Assembly: GCA_002898395.1 (NCBI GenBank)
Contig: BEHE01000002.1
Coordinates: 59,462 to 123,461, forward strand
DNA: 64,000 nt
Direction of reading: 5' to 3'
From: Candidatus Calditenuaceae archaeon HR02
GTDB taxonomy: Archaea; Thermoproteota; Nitrososphaeria_A; Caldarchaeales; Calditenuaceae
The notes under the pieces were generated by a model, which was not told the origin of the DNA, searched no databases, and saw only the letters and a list, made by a program, of their open reading frames with translations. Positions 4,394 through 11,950 of the stretch are shown piece after piece. The translations under genes were made by a program, and so were the position numbers. Numbering within the stretch: position 1 is the stretch's first letter; each line of letters begins with the position of its first letter.

Positions 4394-6550
4394 ATGGATC
4401 CATTGGTTTTTACCATTACTGTGGGATTGCTCGGTGCTGCCGCTTCGGTGCTCCTAATAGCGTATGTAGAGAGGCTTCCTAAAGGTGATGAGGGGTTTGT
4501 TAATATTTGGCGCGCAATCCGGGAAGGTGCGAGCGCGTATCTTAAGAGGCAGTTTAAGACGATCGCCATCATCGCGGCTGCCTTAGCTACCTTGATTCTG
4601 GGCAGCTTCTCCATCTTTCCTCAGCTGGGGGGACTCAGATACGGCATCGCCATGGCAGGCAGCTTCCTATTGGGCGTTTGCTTCTCCCTCATCGCAGCGT
4701 TCATAGCGATGGATGCCGCTACAAGGGCTAACGTAAGGACAACGTATGCGGCCTCTCGGAGCAGTGTGCAGGCACTTCGAGTGGCGACGCTCGGCGGCGC
4801 GTCACTGGGTCTAGCAGTGATCGCTATGAGCCTTCTGGGCCTCTCTATTCTTTACGTTGTTTTCAGGGACCCTGGACTTCTGGCGGGCTTCGGGTTTGGG
4901 GCTAGTCTAGCTGCACTGTTCGCCCAACTCGGTGGAGGGATATATACTAAGAGTGCTGATATTGGTGCAGACCTTGTTGGAAAAGTGGAGGCGGGCATAC
5001 CGGAGGACGACCCTAGAAACCCCGCAGTGGTAGCCGACCTGGTTGGTGATAATGTCGGGGACGAGGCGGGTAGGGGAGCTGACCTCTTCGAGTCGGTCAC
5101 AGCCGAGAATCTTGGAGGAATGATAATAGCTCTCGTAGTGTCTATAGTATTGTTCAATGGTATTAATGAGCTGTATGTTGTCACTCCACTAATAATTAGG
5201 GCTCTCGGAGTTATAGCCACGTTCGCAGGCGTTTCTTGGGCGGTCTCGAGGAAGGGTTTTAGAGAGGCCATAGGCCCGCTTCGAGAGGGCCTGATAGTTA
5301 CGGGCATATTGGCGGCTGTTATGATGTATCTCGCCAGCTGGCTCATATTCGGACCCCAGGGCCTGCCGCTTTACGTTACAATGATTATCGGGCTGATCGC
5401 GGGCATCTTGATAATGTTTTATAGCGAGTTTTACACAGGCTTGAAGTCCAGATATGTCTCGGTGATTGCTCAGAATTCCCAGTCGGGACCAGCCCTTACC
5501 GCGATGACGGGAATATCGACCGGCATGATCTCTTCGATGCTTCCAGTTGCTACGGTTGTCGTGGCTGTAGCCCTCTCATTCTGGCTAGGGAGCTATTGGT
5601 CCGGCATCGCTGGTCTAGGTGACCCACTGCTGGGCGGGATTTATGGTACGACAATGGCGACTATGGGAATGCTCTCGACCGCTGGATTCATCTTGACCAT
5701 GGATGGCGTGGGGCCCATCGTGGATAATGCGGGAGGGATAGCAGAGATGGCTAACGCTGAGCCAGTCATTAGGGAGAGGCTCGAACCGCTTGACGCGCTC
5801 GGAAACACTACAAAGGCTCTTACAAAGTCTTATGCCATGGGCTCGGCAGCCCTAGCAGCCCTTCTTCTATTCCAAGCCTTCCTCCTGGAGGTGGCGAGGT
5901 ATATGGCGGGCATCTATGAGCTCGTGCTGATAGGGCCGGGGGAGGCTGACCGTCTCTTGAGGAGCGTCGAGATGCTTAGCTCGGGACTCCAGCTCAACTC
6001 GCCCGCCGTGGTAATAGGGCTTTTCATAGGGGGTATGATACCTTTCCTCTTCTCGGGGCAGGCAATGAATGCTGTAGCCAGCGGCGCATACCGCATGGTG
6101 GAGGAGGTGAGGAGACAGTTTGCATCAATACCGGGGATAATGGATGGAAGCGGTAGGCCAGAGTATGGGCGGTGTGTAGATATCTCCACTTCGACAGCTT
6201 TAAGACTGATGATTACGCCCACGTTGACGGTGACCCTTTCCCCGATCTTGATAGGCGTGTTGCTTGGCTGGAAGGCAGTTGGCTCCCTAGTATTGGGTGC
6301 GACGATCTCTGCGATACCACTGGCGATCATGGGGTTCTATGGTGGAGCGGCGATGGATAATGCGAAGAAGCTCCTCGAGATTGGGGGCAAGAAGGGAACT
6401 GATGCTCATAAAGCGGCAGTCGTTGGCGACACACTGGGAGATCCCATGAAAGACACTTACGCGCCGAGCCTACACATCCTGATAAAACTGCTTAATACGC
6501 TGTCCCTTGTGTTTATCCCGCTCTTTATGATTGGGCTAATACCACTCTAG
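4394..6550 (+). CDS. hppA: Membrane H+-translocating pyrophosphatase, K+-independent type
   Basis: GGGIYTKSADIGADLVGKVE, EDDPRNP, DNVGD, GPIVDNAGG, GNTTKALTK (Lys = K+-independent signature), GDTLGDPMKD. Confidence 0.97.
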   Translation: MDPLVFTITVGLLGAAASVLLIAYVERLPKGDEGFVNIWRAIREGASAYLKRQFKTIAIIAAALATLILGSFSIFPQLGGLRYGIAMAGSFLLGVCFSLIAAFIAMDAATRANVRTTYAASRSSVQALRVATLGGASLGLAVIAMSLLGLSILYVVFRDPGLLAGFGFGASLAALFAQLGGGIYTKSADIGADLVGKVEAGIPEDDPRNPAVVADLVGDNVGDEAGRGADLFESVTAENLGGMIIALVVSIVLFNGINELYVVTPLIIRALGVIATFAGVSWAVSRKGFREAIGPLREGLIVTGILAAVMMYLASWLIFGPQGLPLYVTMIIGLIAGILIMFYSEFYTGLKSRYVSVIAQNSQSGPALTAMTGISTGMISSMLPVATVVVAVALSFWLGSYWSGIAGLGDPLLGGIYGTTMATMGMLSTAGFILTMDGVGPIVDNAGGIAEMANAEPVIRERLEPLDALGNTTKALTKSYAMGSAALAALLLFQAFLLEVARYMAGIYELVLIGPGEADRLLRSVEMLSSGLQLNSPAVVIGLFIGGMIPFLFSGQAMNAVASGAYRMVEEVRRQFASIPGIMDGSGRPEYGRCVDISTSTALRLMITPTLTVTLSPILIGVLLGWKAVGSLVLGATISAIPLAIMGFYGGAAMDNAKKLLEIGGKKGTDAHKAAVVGDTLGDPMKDTYAPSLHILIKLLNTLSLVFIPLFMIGLIPL

Positions 6551-7728
6551 GGCCGCTCCCCCAACACCACCGCAACGTTTAACGTCTCACCGCCCCTAAG
6601 GATAGTCAGCAACACTGTGTCTCCAGGACTCGTCTTCTCAACCATGTATGTCAGAAGGTCGTCCATGCTAGTGACCGGGTTACCGTTTATCGCCACTATA
6701 ACATCACCTCCGACTCTATACTCTCTCCCAGCAACCACGAGGGTCCTAGAGCCTCCCTTGATACCGGCCTTATCCGCCGGACCATTCGGAACTACGCTCT
6801 CCACCAACAACCCTTTCTTCACACCGAGTCCAAGCTCACTGGCAATTAGTGCGTCTATCTCTCTACCCGAGATCCCAAGATAGCTGTGGGTATATCCGCC
6901 CTTTTCGATTAGTTCTGGAACTATACGCCTCACAACGTTTGATGATATTGCATACCCAATCCCCGCGAACTGCCCCGTAGTCGATTCTATCGCAGTGGCA
7001 ACACCTACAACTTCCCCCCTCATATTGAGAATAGGTCCTCCAGAGTTTCCAGGGTTCACGGCAGCATCTATCTGTATTATTCCGGGAATGAGGTATCCTC
7101 TACTTGAAGGTAAAAGCCTACCCTTCTGGCTGACAATGCCTGTCGTAACACTTCCCGTAAGCTCGAAGGGGTTACCGATAACGATTATCTGGTCGCCAAT
7201 CTGGAGTTCGCTCGAGTTACCGAGCCTTAAAGGCTTGAATGACCTAGTCTCCCCACTCCCAACTATCTTCAATACCGCCAAGTCCGTGTCAGGATCTCTC
7301 CCCACGAGCTCTGCCCTATAAGCACTCCCATCGATAAAGTAGACATAGTACTCCAGCCCACCTTCAACCACGTGATTATTCGTAACCACATGTCCCTTTG
7401 GGTCATAGACGAATCCGGAGCCTACAGACTCTCCAAACCTATAGAGCGTTCTTATCTCGACTACAGAATCTTTAACCATTTCATAGACCCGCGTCACATT
7501 ATACTGAATTGTTACGACGGCTGTATGGGCTGGCCGGGAATTCTCAATTGAACTTATCTCAGCCCTCGCCTCCTGCAGGTCTTTTCTGAGAGACTCTATC
7601 TTTGATTCCAGCGCAGCTATTTGAGAGGTGAGCGTCGACAGGTTTTGCTGGTAATCTATGACTTGAAGGAATAGGATTGCTATGAGGGCGAGAGATGCTG
7701 CTGATATGGCTATCGAAACCTTGCTCAT
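6547..7728 (-). CDS. htrA: HtrA/DegP serine protease with membrane anchor, coiled coil and PDZ
   Basis: GSGF, TNNHVV, DLAVLK, GNSGGP, C-terminal PDZ. Confidence 0.95.
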   Translation of the reverse strand: MSKVSIAISAASLALIAILFLQVIDYQQNLSTLTSQIAALESKIESLRKDLQEARAEISSIENSRPAHTAVVTIQYNVTRVYEMVKDSVVEIRTLYRFGESVGSGFVYDPKGHVVTNNHVVEGGLEYYVYFIDGSAYRAELVGRDPDTDLAVLKIVGSGETRSFKPLRLGNSSELQIGDQIIVIGNPFELTGSVTTGIVSQKGRLLPSSRGYLIPGIIQIDAAVNPGNSGGPILNMRGEVVGVATAIESTTGQFAGIGYAISSNVVRRIVPELIEKGGYTHSYLGISGREIDALIASELGLGVKKGLLVESVVPNGPADKAGIKGGSRTLVVAGREYRVGGDVIVAINGNPVTSMDDLLTYMVEKTSPGDTVLLTILRGGETLNVAVVLGERP

Positions 7729-7734
7729 ACTGAA

Positions 7735-9018
7735 TCACCCAGTCCTGGTTCCAATACGCTTCAACGCTTTCTCGATACCTGTTCCATACTGTGCGGCCTT
7801 CTTCTCCTTCTCTACCAGCTCGGACGGCAGACCCGCAAGCCTCGCAACACTCCTCAACACCACTTTCCTAACACCTCTAGAAATCTTGAAATTAAGTGGT
7901 AGATTATATGCATTGTTGATGATTCGTTCATCCAAGTAGGGGGTTGTTAACAGGCATCCCCCCAACGCTGCTGAAGCGTAGTCCCTCGGCAGGCTTCTGA
8001 ACCAGAGAGTGTCTAGGTCTCTCCTCATCTCCTCCTCCACGCCTGGTTGATTGCCACTCTCAAGCATGCGCAGATACTTCATATACCCCCCAAACAGCTC
8101 GTCCGCTCCCTGACCACTCACCACTTGCCTACGGCCATGCGAAGCAGCAGCCCTAGCCCCTTCGTAAACAAGCAAGGCAAGCGCCCTATCCATTAGAGAT
8201 TGAAGGATCAGGTTTTTCGTCAGGTAGCTGGATGTGTAGGCTATCTCTTGCTCAGACAGTGGTACTTTTACGTAGTCGATGTGAAGAAGCTTTGCTGCCT
8301 TCTCCGAGAAGGAGAGGTCGTGTGACCCGCCCAGACCGACCGAGATTGCCAGGGGGGCTAGGCCGAGCTCAACACACACCCACACCAGCAGTGAGCTATC
8401 AATGCCGCCAGAGAAGAGTACAGCACATTTCTTCGCTACAGACCGTTTAACCGCGGCCACCAACTCTTCGAAAAGCAACTCCGATACATCTTGCAAGTTT
8501 ATGGGAAGTGCGGTCCTTGAAGAAGTACATTCCTGTTTTTCCCCGGTTTTAGGCCCGTTGAATCTGAGCAACATCTCGCTGCAAGGAGGGACGACTTTTT
8601 CCGGGCCGGGATGGAGGCCGACTATGTAGGGTGGAGACGCGACGGTGATTATCTCGCCAGAGCTATAATACGATAGGGGTGGTGAGCCTACCTGCCTAGA
8701 CTTCAGCCTAACCACCTCGCGACGTATCTCTATCTCAGAGGTGAAGGGAGAGTCGGCAAGTTCTCCGACTCCTAGGATGCTGGAAGGTGTCAAGTGGACT
8801 GCAATACCGTCCCGTCCCTCTTCCACAACCCTCTCACCTGCGTGATGGACAACCAGCCCCACCCGCCCCTTCGCCTCGGACAATTCGCGGGGAGAGATAC
8901 GAGAACCATCTATGAAAACCTCATTCACAGGCCACCTATAAGACATCCTTAGTACCCGGTCAATTAGACTGGAGAGGAACACATCACACCTGGAGACCAC
9001 CGCGTACACTATCGCCAT
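7735..9018 (-). CDS. Asparagine synthetase-family protein (synthetase domain intact, Ntn domain divergent)
   Basis: FSGGIDSS PP-loop, SGQGADELFGGY, K..LR..A and KKAAQYGTG motifs. Confidence 0.85.
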   Translation of the reverse strand: MAIVYAVVSRCDVFLSSLIDRVLRMSYRWPVNEVFIDGSRISPRELSEAKGRVGLVVHHAGERVVEEGRDGIAVHLTPSSILGVGELADSPFTSEIEIRREVVRLKSRQVGSPPLSYYSSGEIITVASPPYIVGLHPGPEKVVPPCSEMLLRFNGPKTGEKQECTSSRTALPINLQDVSELLFEELVAAVKRSVAKKCAVLFSGGIDSSLLVWVCVELGLAPLAISVGLGGSHDLSFSEKAAKLLHIDYVKVPLSEQEIAYTSSYLTKNLILQSLMDRALALLVYEGARAAASHGRRQVVSGQGADELFGGYMKYLRMLESGNQPGVEEEMRRDLDTLWFRSLPRDYASAALGGCLLTTPYLDERIINNAYNLPLNFKISRGVRKVVLRSVARLAGLPSELVEKEKKAAQYGTGIEKALKRIGTRTG

Positions 9019-9044: not shown

Positions 9045-9533
9045 TTATTCTCTCTTAAGCTTTTTCTCAACCCGCCTGAGTAGGGGGTCGGGCAGCCTTA
9101 TCTCTGGGTCGCTCCTTATTGCTGGGTGATACGGGTCAATCATTATCACCTCGAACCACTTATACACGCTATCATAAGTCAGCGGGTAGCCGCCGATTGG
9201 GTAGAGGTTGGGATATTTTTTCCTAGCTCTGTTTATCGCCTCTTCGAGCATTGTTACATTGACTTTGTGTAGAACTGTGCCGAGGGCCTTCTGCCTCCTG
9301 CCCGAGTTTGGCCGCGGCTTGCTGAAACCACCCCTCCTAACCCTAACCCTTAAGACCACGAAGCCCTGCTTCGCTTTGTACCCAATGCTTTTAGCCCGGT
9401 CAATCCTTAATGGCTTCTCTACGCGGACCACGGATGGCTCCCGCCTCCAGAGAACCCTCCTAGCCCTGAGAATAGCCTTCAGCTCATCCGGCCGATTCCT
9501 CCAAGCCTGATTCAAGAGAGCGTATAGGCCCAT
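9045..9533 (-). CDS. rpl15e: 50S ribosomal protein L15e (eL15)
   Basis: WRREPSVVRVEKPLRIDRAKSIGYKAKQGFVVLRVRVRRGG; YKWFEVIMIDPYHP. Confidence 0.96.
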   Translation of the reverse strand: MGLYALLNQAWRNRPDELKAILRARRVLWRREPSVVRVEKPLRIDRAKSIGYKAKQGFVVLRVRVRRGGFSKPRPNSGRRQKALGTVLHKVNVTMLEEAINRARKKYPNLYPIGGYPLTYDSVYKWFEVIMIDPYHPAIRSDPEIRLPDPLLRRVEKKLKRE

Positions 9534-9661
9534 GTCCCGTCCAGCCCTGAGCGCCCCAATGACACTCTAGCCTCCATGATAAATACCCTTAAAGGTCTGA
9601 GAGTTGCCAAGATGTGGCGATAAAGGGGTTTTATATATCTGTACAATCTTTTACGGATGGA

Positions 9662-9868
9662 TTGCTTAGACTCAAGGTTGGCAAATCACTTGGAATGTGG
9701 GAATGGGCAACCACGAGCTGCGACGCCTGCCTCCTAGACATCGAGGAGGGAGCCGAGGTTTCCAAGTGTGGTAACTGTGGGGCCTTATTCCACGCCGATT
9801 GTTTCAGAAATCTTCTGAACACAAAGTCTGTATGCCCAAAGTGTAGGGTGAGCTTGTATGAGCAGTAA
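9662..9868 (+). CDS. Small C4HC3 RING-finger protein (putative E3)
   Basis: C-x2-C-x12-C-x2-C-x4-H-x2-C-x10-CPxC. TATA-like TTTTATATAT at ~9629-9638 favours a leaderless TTG start at 9662. Confidence 0.85.
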   Translation: MLRLKVGKSLGMWEWATTSCDACLLDIEEGAEVSKCGNCGALFHADCFRNLLNTKSVCPKCRVSLYEQ

Positions 9869-10232
9869 TGAGAAAGAGGAGGCAGGGCCCGGCGAGGAGG
9901 AAGAGATAGTCATCGACATTATAGAGACGCCTAGGGGCCGTGTCCCTGAATTCGACAGTACCTTCCGCGCACTCGAGAAAATATCGGCCAGACTTTTAGA
10001 GCAGGATGAGAAGATAGAAAGGGCTTTGAGCCGCATATCGAGTGGACAGCTATCAAGCACCGAGCTTAAGACAATTCTGGAGACACTCGAGTCTATTAGA
10101 GAAGACTTATCTAAACTCTCGAAGAGGCTGGAGATAATAGAGGATAATATAGGTGAAATGTATGAAAGGCTAAACCTGCTGGACTATCTGGCTGATATCG
10201 TTGAGCGTTATCTTCGCTCCCTAGAGGGCTAG
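9858..10232 (+). CDS. Coiled-coil protein with acidic N-terminus, overlapping the small RING gene
   Basis: 11-bp overlap with the upstream ORF; heptad Leu/Ile pattern in the C-terminal half. Confidence 0.75.
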   Translation: MSSNEKEEAGPGEEEEIVIDIIETPRGRVPEFDSTFRALEKISARLLEQDEKIERALSRISSGQLSSTELKTILETLESIREDLSKLSKRLEIIEDNIGEMYERLNLLDYLADIVERYLRSLEG

Positions 10233-11077
10233 GTGGGTCCCCGAAGTATTCCGCCCCTGAGTTCCTGCTTAATCCGCTCCAACTCCCGCTTCTCAGACTC
10301 CAGCCTAGAAATCTCCTGGGCGAGCTGGGCTTTCTTCTTCTCCAGCCTCCTCACCTCCTCGGCCAGCTGCGAGAACTGCTTGTTATACTCCTCAGCAATA
10401 GATTTTGCCGCCTCGAGCCTCAATATCTCCTCCCTCTTCCGCTCCTCCAGCCTCACGAGCCTCTCGAGCCTCGCCTCCCTCACTTTAAACCTCTTGTCCA
10501 ATTCTTTCATAGTCTTCTCAATGCCTTCAGCCGCGGACTGGAGCGCTGCGAAATAGGAGCCGTGGAGCTCTCTTATCTTCTCCTCGAGATACGCCTTCCG
10601 CTCCTCCAGCTCTTCGACCTCTTTCTCAAAATTCCTCAAGGCCCTGTCCTTCTCCTCGACCTCCTGCCTAAGCTGAATCAGCTCTTGGCGCAATGTCTCG
10701 AGGTTGTTTTTCTCCTGCTCCAACCTCTCCCTCTCCTGCAGTATTGCCTGCCTGGCCTTCTCCAAGACCTCTACCTGCTCCCTCTGAAACTCCAGTAGCC
10801 TCGCCAGCTCCTCCTGCTGCTCTTGGAAGATCACGAGGTATGAGGTGAGGGACTTCAAGACATTCACGCCTTCAATGAACTCTTTTATGAGATATTCTGG
10901 CTGAGTTGAGGCTAATGCGTCAAACCTAGCAATCATTTCTTGGGCGGCAGACTTTATCTGGCTAATCACGCTTCCCGAGATTTGCGACTCGATGTTTTGG
11001 AGCTGAGTCATTATACTCCTTAAATTCTGCGATATAGCTTCCAGCTCCTCTGAACGCCGCCCTATTATCGAGCCCAT
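10229..11077 (-). CDS. Long coiled-coil protein of unknown function
   Basis: 282 aa, E/K/R/Q/L-rich with long heptad runs and no enzyme motif. Confidence 0.8.
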   Translation of the reverse strand: MGSIIGRRSEELEAISQNLRSIMTQLQNIESQISGSVISQIKSAAQEMIARFDALASTQPEYLIKEFIEGVNVLKSLTSYLVIFQEQQEELARLLEFQREQVEVLEKARQAILQERERLEQEKNNLETLRQELIQLRQEVEEKDRALRNFEKEVEELEERKAYLEEKIRELHGSYFAALQSAAEGIEKTMKELDKRFKVREARLERLVRLEERKREEILRLEAAKSIAEEYNKQFSQLAEEVRRLEKKKAQLAQEISRLESEKRELERIKQELRGGILRGPT

Positions 11078-11197: not shown

Positions 11198-11950
11198 ATG
11201 ATCACTCAGACAAGTGAGGCTTTGGCCAGGTTCAGCAGGATCGGTGCTCTAATCTCACTCTTAGGTGCGACACACGCTTTAAGCCTAATACTCAACTGGT
11301 TCTCGATAAATTACGACGATGTTGGCCGATCCCTGATCAGTGGGTATACCTTCATGGAGCCCCTACTGATTTCTTTGGCTGCTGGCGGCGCGGCCGGCGC
11401 AACAGGCGTGTTTGCCTCAAATCTTAAGGATCTCACGAAGCTTAGACTCGTTGTGCCACTCCTCTCTTTTACTGCGGCGGGGCTAGCCCTCTTCTCACCC
11501 CTCTACACATACTTGATAAAGCTTCCAGGCTTCGGTGGCCTGAACTTCATTCCCGAGCTGGGTCTATTCGCAGCCCTCTTCACAGGGATAGCGATAACGG
11601 GTGCCTCGATACTCGCCCTAATTGCTGCCATGCGGACACGTGTTACAGCCTACATGGCGCCATCACCCCTCTGGGTAACGGCAAGGGAAGAGGAGACCGG
11701 GACAGTCGCGGAGTTTACCGAGCCGACAGCCGAGGAACAGGCAGCCATACTTGAGCAGGCTCCGGAGAGGGAGGAAAGGGGATTAGAAACAGCGGCGGGC
11801 GGCCAGTGTATGATATGTGGCGACCTCATCACAGGAGGTGATACTGAGTCCTGTCACAGGTGTGGAGCCGTCTTTCATAAGGATTGCATGAACGTGTGGG
11901 TTGACTTGGGGAATAAGTGCCCTTCCTGTGGAGGGGAGCTCCGAGGCTAG
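11198..11950 (+). CDS. Multi-pass membrane protein with acidic linker and C-terminal C4HC3 RING finger
   Basis: About 4 TM helices, then an E-rich linker, then CMIC-x11-CHRC-x4-HKDC-MNVW-x6-CPSC. TATA-like TTTATATATA at ~11163-11172. Confidence 0.85.
   Translation: MITQTSEALARFSRIGALISLLGATHALSLILNWFSINYDDVGRSLISGYTFMEPLLISLAAGGAAGATGVFASNLKDLTKLRLVVPLLSFTAAGLALFSPLYTYLIKLPGFGGLNFIPELGLFAALFTGIAITGASILALIAAMRTRVTAYMAPSPLWVTAREEETGTVAEFTEPTAEEQAAILEQAPEREERGLETAAGGQCMICGDLITGGDTESCHRCGAVFHKDCMNVWVDLGNKCPSCGGELRG

Follow-up and report, generated by a model that had tools for sequence, protein, structure and literature searches.

The small RING protein srfp of Caldiarchaeum subterraneum is, according to its published characterization, an E3 that works with archaeal E1, E2 and ubiquitin (PMC5654768). 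Here we analyze an srfp-type gene of Candidatus Calditenuaceae archaeon HR02 (order Caldarchaeales, Aigarchaeota), located in a stretch of 64,000 nucleotides (assembly GCA_002898395.1, contig BEHE01000002.1, positions 59,462 to 123,461 of the forward strand; hereafter the window), together with the strand-Gly-Trp element at the N-terminus of its product and a 124-residue protein encoded directly downstream. On balance, we lean toward an explanation in which the srfp E3 would dock through its N-terminus to this hairpin-bearing protein. Two things are new here: in two phyla the putative hairpin/coiled-coil partner strictly co-occurs with srfp, and srfp is homologous over its full length to the ribosomal protein aS34.

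Rbx1 and Apc11 possess a basic beta-strand, ending in WxW just before the RING, that inserts into the cullin sheet, and Rbx1 additionally has an insertion carrying a third zinc site. The original prediction, made from the window sequence alone, saw an Rbx1/Apc11-like layout in the small RING protein and raised the possibility of docking onto the 124-residue protein. Two archaeal systems offer further comparisons. A preprint on Asgard archaea describes a conserved N-terminal 'N-loop' in the RING E3, models it as a loop and proposes that it binds UEV-Vps23; a Helarchaeial E3 without residues 1-19 could still be purified, with weakened substrate binding, and an uncharacterised cluster gene, asCOG005522, is noted as well (10.1101/2023.07.25.550441). 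The aS34 study reports a protein of 72 amino acids that sits on the 30S head of Saccharolobus solfataricus, contacts h33, uS3 and uS14 and occupies the place of eukaryotic eS10; its authors describe it as RING-like, assign it only to Sulfolobales, Desulfurococcales, Acidilobales and Fervidicoccales, and report no convincing homologues elsewhere (PMC11698992).

Results

Family identity of the small RING protein

The gene that the original prediction placed at 9662..9868 is real, and the sequence quoted for it is present there on the forward strand (Table 1). In an alignment of 30 order-wide homologues with identities down to 29% (A1), the zinc ligands C20, C23, C36, C39, H44, C47, C58 and C61 are invariant (30/30), as is P59, and the last Cys is followed by an Arg or Lys linchpin in 30/30 (Arg62 here). 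The predicted C4HC3 ligand set was thereby borne out, as was the Leu in place of the usual E2-contact Trp (Leu51). Pfam zf-RING_2 scored 38.5 bits against a cut-off of 27.3 for the window protein and was matched at E<=0.01 by all 30 family members. The best solved relatives of the RING in a profile search of the PDB were the RING-H2 E3s EL5, Arkadia and RNF165, and generic RING-H2 domains came out on top when the srfp model was compared with solved folds by Foldseek and VIA-align. Reading the C4HC3 pattern as a PHD finger was rejected (Pfam PHD 15.2 against a cut-off of 24; strong solved matches all RING E3s).

All 41 related genomes searched, drawn from four families in a single order, carry a homologue (41/41); in a wider sample of 301 genomes from the phylum, each of the 43 that belong to this order (G000 among them) has one as well. 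The window family profile matches the 75-residue srfp of a one-contig relative (G024) at E 3.9e-19 over positions 6-68. This G024 protein has I30, W58 and R69 exactly where Hennell James et al. 2017 introduced their mutations (PMC5654768), and its ligand spacing is that printed for C. subterraneum srfp (CSUB_C1477) by Nunoura et al. (PMC3082918). Because of the profile match, the mutant positions and the ligand spacing, the window protein is very probably an orthologue of C. subterraneum srfp and an E3. It is thus a member of a known, characterized family, and its identity is not new.

The two orthologues share their small size (68 vs 75 amino acids), the C-x2-C...C-x2-C-x4-H-x2-C...C-x2-C pattern with a linchpin Arg after the last Cys, and an N-terminal strand with a G-x-W element. 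They also share their downstream genes, which encode a hairpin/coiled-coil protein, an opposite-strand coiled-coil protein and a membrane RING protein. The window protein differs in having x12, not x11, between the first two ligand pairs and W-E-W instead of W-N-P-F.

A conserved N-terminal element ahead of the RING

G11, W13 and W15 of the N-terminal element are invariant in A1 (30/30), on par with the zinc ligands, with a W-N-P-W form in three of the sequences. Farther afield the element varies: only W13 is invariant in a broader 27-sequence cross-phylum alignment, where G11 is kept in at least 90%, the Caldiarchaeum family has G-F-W-N-P-F, so that the second Trp is replaced, and W-D-L, W-V-L and W-N-L-W occur among further homologues. 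An exhaustive profile search returned 17,673 proteins at E<=0.001, mostly RING-only matches, and the best 150 were examined for WxW. Within these 150, WxW lies at most 22 residues ahead of the RING in 17/27 small (<=140 amino acids) archaeal proteins, with near variants in six more, as against 0/225 RING motifs in 123 large proteins. WxW ahead of the RING is not a chance occurrence and, in the sequences compared, is specific to small archaeal RINGs. The proposed signature survives comparison with homologues, since it is kept throughout the order and by Asgard archaea too; this N-terminal conservation is real and was partly noticed earlier in the Asgard preprint.

The AlphaFold2 monomer model, built on A1, has a confident RING, and its first 20 residues reach a predicted local distance difference test (pLDDT) of 73-77 with no secondary structure assigned by DSSP. 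The N-terminal strand put forward in the original prediction is therefore not seen in the monomer model. We regard the N-terminus as probably a docking element rather than part of the RING fold.

A hairpin/coiled-coil protein that co-occurs with srfp

The ATG of the 124-residue protein gene lies inside the RING gene, 11 nucleotides ahead of its end. A positional orthologue is found directly 3' of srfp in 27/30 loci, where the stop codon of one gene and the start codon of the next usually overlap or abut, and likewise in G024. Of the three genomes in which the genes are unlinked, two carry a clear match elsewhere and the third, which is 77% complete, carries none. Across the 301-genome sample, the family is present in 42/43 genomes of the order vs 0/258 other Thermoproteota (E<=1e-7).

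The stretch IVIDIIETP, which had been singled out as the strand to which the RING protein might dock, falls in the invariant T-P-x-G-x-V motif and in a beta-hairpin predicted by AlphaFold2 (strands 21-24 and 27-30, pLDDT ~86), followed by helices 32-61 and 67-123. Pfam and NCBIfam searches with the 124-residue protein gave only sub-threshold coiled-coil matches, and PDB sequence searches only designed coiled coils and heptad repeats of viral fusion proteins, i.e. generic similarities. Foldseek returned nothing for the model at E<=0.001, with stathmin-like 'hairpin plus long helix' chains at an insignificant E of ~3, and the ESM Atlas only unnamed clusters below 0.85. A link to Vip3 (6V1V), reported in the preprint from HHpred, could not be confirmed here.

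The small WxW RING proteins include Asgard representatives from Atabeyarchaeum, Promethearchaeota, Helarchaeota and Heimdallarchaeota. From 151 Asgard genomes we took the best 30 loci, with 26 readable small RING genes, of which 23/26 encode W-D-W and 3/26 Y-D-W, preceded in all 26 by R-F-[IV]-I-x-x-[IV]-K-x-[IV]-G. The single match of the Aigarchaeal 124-residue profile in an Atabeyarchaeum genome is the gene divergently adjoining srfp, in a cluster ordered Vps28, UEV-Vps23, JAB, hairpin gene, srfp, ubiquitin, E2, E1, and hhalign aligned the Aigarchaeal and Atabeyarchaeum hairpin proteins over the motif with 94.6% probability (E 7e-8). The hidden Markov model of the 124-residue family matched the srfp-adjacent open reading frame in 26/30 Asgard loci (E<=2.2e-6); of the four loci without a match, three are truncated. 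The Asgard motif reads I-E-I-E-A-I-K-T-P-K-G-L-V-P-T-V-E-S, and the gene is probably asCOG005522.

The Asgard and window loci have in common a conserved stretch ahead of the RING (for the Asgard loci, R-F-[IV]-I-..-[IV]-G-x-W-D-W) and a neighbouring uncharacterised gene with a T-P-x-G-x-V-P motif. The Asgard proteins differ in the His at the sixth ligand position (H-x2-H) and an often longer N-terminal tail, and their loci in a divergent rather than tandem partner gene and in the additional presence of genes of the endosomal sorting complex required for transport I (ESCRT-I).

Co-occurrence and adjacency argue strongly that srfp and the 124-residue protein gene are functionally linked, and we found no publication on their strict co-occurrence and adjacency in two archaeal phyla. 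That the 124-residue protein is the partner of the srfp N-terminus is a possibility we put forward tentatively, and we infer both the binding and its strand-pairing mode from sequence comparison. The partner claim of the original prediction accordingly stands as to the association of the genes, and not as to a strand-addition interface, none having been obtained; the complex prediction of srfp (A1) with the 124-residue protein (A4) scored 0.05 against a mark of 0.32, was run without controls and is no argument either way about binding.

Full-length homology to ribosomal protein aS34

The A1 profile matched aS34 (PDB 9FHL chain a) at E 1.1e-5, query 6-66 on chain 6-68, and outside the order it found, over nearly their full length, open reading frames of 72-105 amino acids in several Thermoproteota families. 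Fifteen proteins drawn from 18 aS34-like loci formed alignment A3, in which G7, G12, H13, G15 and W16 are invariant. When A1 was compared with A3, hhalign gave a probability of 96.8% (E 2.1e-10) over 69 columns from residue 1, pairing srfp G11 with G12 and W15 with the invariant aS34 Trp W16. A3 scored 60.6 vs srfp and 37.9 vs a control of 60 ordinary RING-H2 domains with upstream flanks, and only the srfp alignments extend into the aS34 N-terminal motif. With the N-terminus removed from the profile, more than 10 bits were lost and aS34 fell out of the best 60 PDB matches. The aS34 chain is not among the matches listed by Foldseek and VIA-align for the srfp model, which does not make the folds different.

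Judged from these alignments, the whole of srfp, N-terminus included, is homologous to aS34, and because the two align from residue 1, the N-terminal element is shared with a solved ribosome-bound protein. Both have ~70 amino acids and a two-zinc RING-like fold, and the alignable part includes the N-terminal strand, the Gly and the Trp. They differ in the motif itself (G-H-x-G-W in aS34; G-x-W-x-W in srfp, G-M-W-E-W in the window), in the canonical His ligand, which aS34 lacks and srfp has in His44, in the first C-x2-C, which is degenerate in one aS34 family, and in role, aS34 being a ribosomal protein and no known E3. No hairpin/coiled-coil partner gene was found near aS34 in the 18 loci. Literature searches, supplements excluded, returned no publication linking srfp to aS34 or srfp to the strand of Rbx1.

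In three aS34-like genes of one Thermoproteota family (L079-L081), the second Cys of the first C-x2-C is His or Thr (C-A-I-H / C-A-I-T), and the first zinc site of aS34 may be degenerating in that family.

Ubiquitin operon and E2 contacts

Compared with C. subterraneum srfp, the window gene lies outside the Rpn11-Ub-E2-E1 operon. The gene order in G024 is Rpn11-Ub-E2-E1-srfp. In the genome of the window, Rpn11, ubiquitin, E2 and E1 are on another contig (C21), away from srfp; the E1 C-terminus continues on contig C28, where an unrelated gene follows, and the cluster has no RING gene. In a genome of the same genus the srfp and Rpn11-Ub-E2-E1 loci are 85 kb apart. That srfp sits inside the cluster is therefore true of family f4 and false of the genus of the window. 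The ubiquitin system itself is clearly scored in the window's own genome (UQ_con 95 bits, ThiF 186.6 bits, ubiquitin 45 bits).

The window protein also differs from C. subterraneum srfp at the E2 interface, where the E2-contact Ile and Trp are replaced by Ala22 and Leu51 throughout the family of the window, Arg62 being retained; homologues from the three other families keep Ile/Val and Trp at these positions. Because two E2-contact residues are changed and the gene has left the operon, E3 activity of the window orthologue is less certain.

The ubiquitin gene of the same genome (L119 1459..1695 (+), contig C21) stops right at ...RTVGG. The pro-ubiquitin of G024 and C. subterraneum has TVGG followed by a nine-residue C-terminal extension, which is missing here; since the extension is absent, Rpn11 processing may be dispensable for ubiquitin maturation in the genus of the window. 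Another coiled-coil protein is encoded 5' of Rpn11 in both operons (L119 2..637 (-), contig C21; L034 3..437 (-), G024). Its N-terminus is a basic strand-like stretch, KKRIVIRRRLIP in the window's own genome and KKIVLRIKP in G024, and the protein may also belong to the conserved set of ubiquitin cluster members.

Weighing the explanations

In the explanation that we moderately favor, the srfp RING of the eukaryote-like ubiquitin system of Caldarchaeales would bind its own E2~Ub and stimulate ubiquitin transfer. The protein would be a one-domain E3 in which residues 1-15 form a separate, non-RING docking element. Its most likely docking partner would be the co-translated 124-residue protein. 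The invariant IIETP-RGRVP hairpin of that protein would form a pairing with the strand(s) at the srfp N-terminus, and its coiled coil would act as adaptor or scaffold.

Several points weigh against this explanation. No physical or modelled interface between srfp and the 124-residue protein was obtained, and genes are often kept adjacent without their products binding each other. Of the three E2-contact positions that experiments showed to be important, two are changed, in a gene outside the operon. The window's own E2 differs from that of G024 in two loops (PY -> PF, SPS -> YPN), which are the loops mutated in the C. subterraneum study (PMC5654768); these changes may reflect co-variation with srfp or a loosened E2-E3 contact. 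According to the same source, C. subterraneum srfp worked in vitro with E1, E2 and ubiquitin alone, on a surrogate substrate (PMC5654768). Finally, the preprint assigns the N-terminal region to UEV-Vps23, not to the 124-residue family, with very weak affinities (10.1101/2023.07.25.550441); Rbx1, tryptophans and Aigarchaeota have 0 occurrences each in its text.

Alternatively, srfp could be a free-standing monomeric E3 that uses its N-terminus for substrate recognition or ubiquitin priming, and the coiled-coil neighbour a substrate or an unrelated pathway member, which we consider unlikely. The closest solved RINGs, Arkadia, RNF165/Ark2C and RNF38, are monomeric E3s that bind a second ubiquitin via residues flanking the RING. 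C. subterraneum srfp was moreover active alone in vitro (PMC5654768), and deletion of the Asgard N-loop made UEV binding 3.17-fold weaker; the UEV affinity reported there lies in the 0.1-10 mM range (10.1101/2023.07.25.550441). A monomeric E3 would also leave the strict co-occurrence of srfp with the hairpin protein unexplained.

Still more doubtful is a true Rbx1/Apc11-like mode, in which the N-terminal strand would be homologous to the cullin-inserting strand and buried intermolecularly in a scaffold, srfp and its partner forming a proto-cullin-RING ligase. Its best support comes from profile alignments. In the search of the PDB with the full-length A1 profile, the alignments of the 11 RBX1 sequences among the matches listed run from profile position 2-3 to 61-65 (e.g., 6ttu_R, RBX1 residues 21-100, 22.7 bits, E 5.9e-4), through both Trp columns of the profile to the end of the RING; the placement of RBX1's own tryptophans in these alignments is assumed here. 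Ordinary RING E3s start at profile position 15-20 (A1) and other listed eukaryotic RINGs at 13-22 (A1 and A6), RBX2 excepted, at 10, so that among the matches listed RBX1 is the only non-archaeal solved RING with a HMMER alignment through the N-terminus. A broader Aigarchaeota and Asgard profile (A6) gave RBX1 29-31 bits (E ~2e-6), the alignment once more starting at position 2. When the 30 sequences of A1 were cut down to the RING (A7), RBX1 scored 18.2 bits (E 0.017) with only the C-terminal half of the RING aligned, while EL5, Arkadia and RNF165 shifted by -1.6 to +2.2 bits when the N-terminus was cut off (A7 vs A1). A strictly co-occurring partner with an exposed beta-hairpin, predicted for the 124-residue protein, exists as well. 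VIA-align paired model residues 1/3/5-68 with RBX1 23/27-104 at Z 5.4-5.7, values level with those of many unrelated RINGs.

On the other side, the N-terminal segment adds only ~4.5 bits to the RBX1 score, and an N-terminus-only profile (A2) found no RBX1, APC11 or aS34 in the PDB at E<=10, just chance-level matches, one of them (E 0.28) to an esterase that contains G-x-W-x-W. In place of the second Trp, homologues can have F, L or a shifted W. Membership of the Rbx1/Apc11 family was not borne out, as zf-rbx1 (23.9 vs a cut-off of 31) and zf-ANAPC11 (17.1 vs 25) both stay below their Pfam cut-offs; the matches cover residues 28-62 and 36-65, i.e. the RING only, and are uninformative on the strand. 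No cullin was found in the window's own genome with the Pfam Cullin model, whose best score (11.5 bits vs 33.2, E 0.09) equals the control-genome level, the Apc2 and Cullin_Nedd8 models not having been searched. The 124-residue protein has no solved relative beyond generic coiled coils and hence no tie to the cullin fold. Because C. subterraneum srfp is active with E1, E2 and ubiquitin alone, no scaffold is needed for its activity or solubility, unlike for a buried Rbx1-type strand (PMC5654768).

Taken together, the window protein resembles Rbx1 and Apc11 in being a small RING protein whose N-terminal extension ends in W-x-W shortly before the first Cys, and differs in its C4HC3 rather than RING-H2 ligands and in having 12 residues between ligand pairs with no inserted third zinc site. 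The Pfam scores, the cullin search and the soluble, scaffold-free C. subterraneum orthologue set it apart further. What stands of the proposed Rbx1-like layout is a conserved pattern with RBX1 aligned through it; the element is undetectable alone, and the sequences support the Rbx1/Apc11 analogy weakly.

Least likely, and in our view quite improbable, is that srfp is bound, by analogy with aS34, to the small-subunit head (h33/uS3/uS14) with the N-terminus as anchor, as a structural protein or resident quality-control E3: the full-length homology with its N-terminus-dependent signal, the divergent rpl15e neighbour in the genus of the window and its sister genus (10/35 loci) and the two E2-contact residues lost in the family of the window would fit, against which stand the different ligand set of aS34, in which His44 has no counterpart and the His of G-H-x-G-W is invariant, the restriction of the rpl15e adjacency to those two genera, and the E1, E2 and ubiquitin retained by srfp lineages, ubiquitin and E2 not being known from aS34-bearing lineages. 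The aS34 study itself raises a quality-control role (PMC11698992); for the C. subterraneum protein, E3 activity has been shown (PMC5654768).

Start codon, promoter and neighbouring genes

The longest form of the RING open reading frame in the window opens at GTG 9614. We rejected this start in favor of TTG 9662 on the basis of start spacing, short upstream frames, TATA distance and codon changes. A possible start codon (TTG, GTG or ATG) is found 12-16 residues ahead of the first Trp in most of the 30 homologous loci (up to 23 in one genus), the open frames of some homologues begin merely 1-3 codons 5' of the TTG-equivalent start, and third-position changes in codons 2-5 keep L, R, L/I/V and K/R. 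The internal ATG 9695 was rejected too, since the corresponding Met12 is not conserved. A TATA-like box (TTTATATA; TTTAAATA in the sister genus) precedes the start by ~23-25 nucleotides in 11 loci of two genera, and because it is so close to TTG 9662, a leaderless srfp mRNA from this predicted promoter is implied.

Downstream, the 282-residue coiled-coil protein gene is kept at the same relative position in 32/35 loci of the order (tblastn), and its product has only coiled-coil-type Pfam and NCBIfam matches, all below cut-off. The membrane RING gene, ~2 kb 3' of srfp, is the second match in nearly all genomes of the order; its product may be a second E3 in the ubiquitin system of these archaea, one anchored in the membrane. 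The three genes beyond rpl15e, upstream of srfp, look ordinary, as judged from their translations without a family search.

Table 1. Features of the srfp locus, with positions counted from the first nucleotide of the window.
Feature	Position	Strand	Description and basis
718-residue membrane pyrophosphatase-like protein	within 4394..9018	+	translation
393-residue HtrA-like serine protease	within 4394..9018	-	with PDZ; translation
427-residue asparagine-synthase-like protein	within 4394..9018	-	translation
Ribosomal protein L15e gene (rpl15e)	9045..9533	-	divergent, 128 bp from srfp start
TATA-like box	9630..9637	+	TTTATATA; sequence and cross-loci comparison; putative promoter
srfp-type small RING gene	9662..9868	+	68 amino acids, TTG start, TAA stop (9866-9868); sequence and homologue comparison
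N-terminal element, residues 1-15	9662..9706	+	MLRLKVGKSLGMWEW; alternating basic/hydrophobic stretch, Gly11, Trp13, Trp15
RING cross-brace domain, C20-C61	9719..9844	+	C-x2-C-x12-C-x2-C-x4-H-x2-C-x10-C-x2-C, then linchpin Arg62
124-residue partner candidate	9858..10232	+	acidic tail, beta-hairpin motif, two long helices; open reading frame listing, comparison and model
Conserved motif of 124-residue protein, residues 17-32	9906..9953	+	IVIDIIETPRGRVPEF; T24, P25, G27 and V29 invariant (27 sequences)
282-residue coiled-coil protein	10229..11077	-	between hairpin gene and membrane RING gene; part of conserved block
250-residue predicted membrane protein with C-terminal RING	11198..11950	+	several spans; C4HC3 spacing as srfp; zf-RING_2 32.2 bits vs 27.3

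Discussion

No living system models the ancestor of eukaryotic ubiquitylation better than the E1/E2/RING system of archaea, and the srfp locus bears on how a bare RING became a docked subunit of multi-protein ligases such as cullin-RING ligases and the anaphase-promoting complex (APC/C). The analysis provides handles on this transition: a conserved non-RING element on an archaeal E3, a single hairpin-bearing candidate partner in two phyla, and aS34 on the 30S subunit, a solved structure with a homologous N-terminal element. A broader and speculative scenario, to which we give little weight, is that the strand-Gly-Trp N-terminus might be an ancestral docking module of small archaeal RINGs, which would be paired with a hairpin in an Aigarchaeota/Asgard two-subunit ligase (a functional forerunner of cullin-Rbx1 and Apc2-Apc11) and would serve as the ribosome anchor of the RING relic aS34 in ubiquitin-less archaea of the Sulfolobales type. 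If the pairing between srfp and the 124-residue protein is false, srfp here would be an ordinary orthologue of a characterized E3; if it is true, archaea would have, in this pair, their first described multi-subunit RING ligase.

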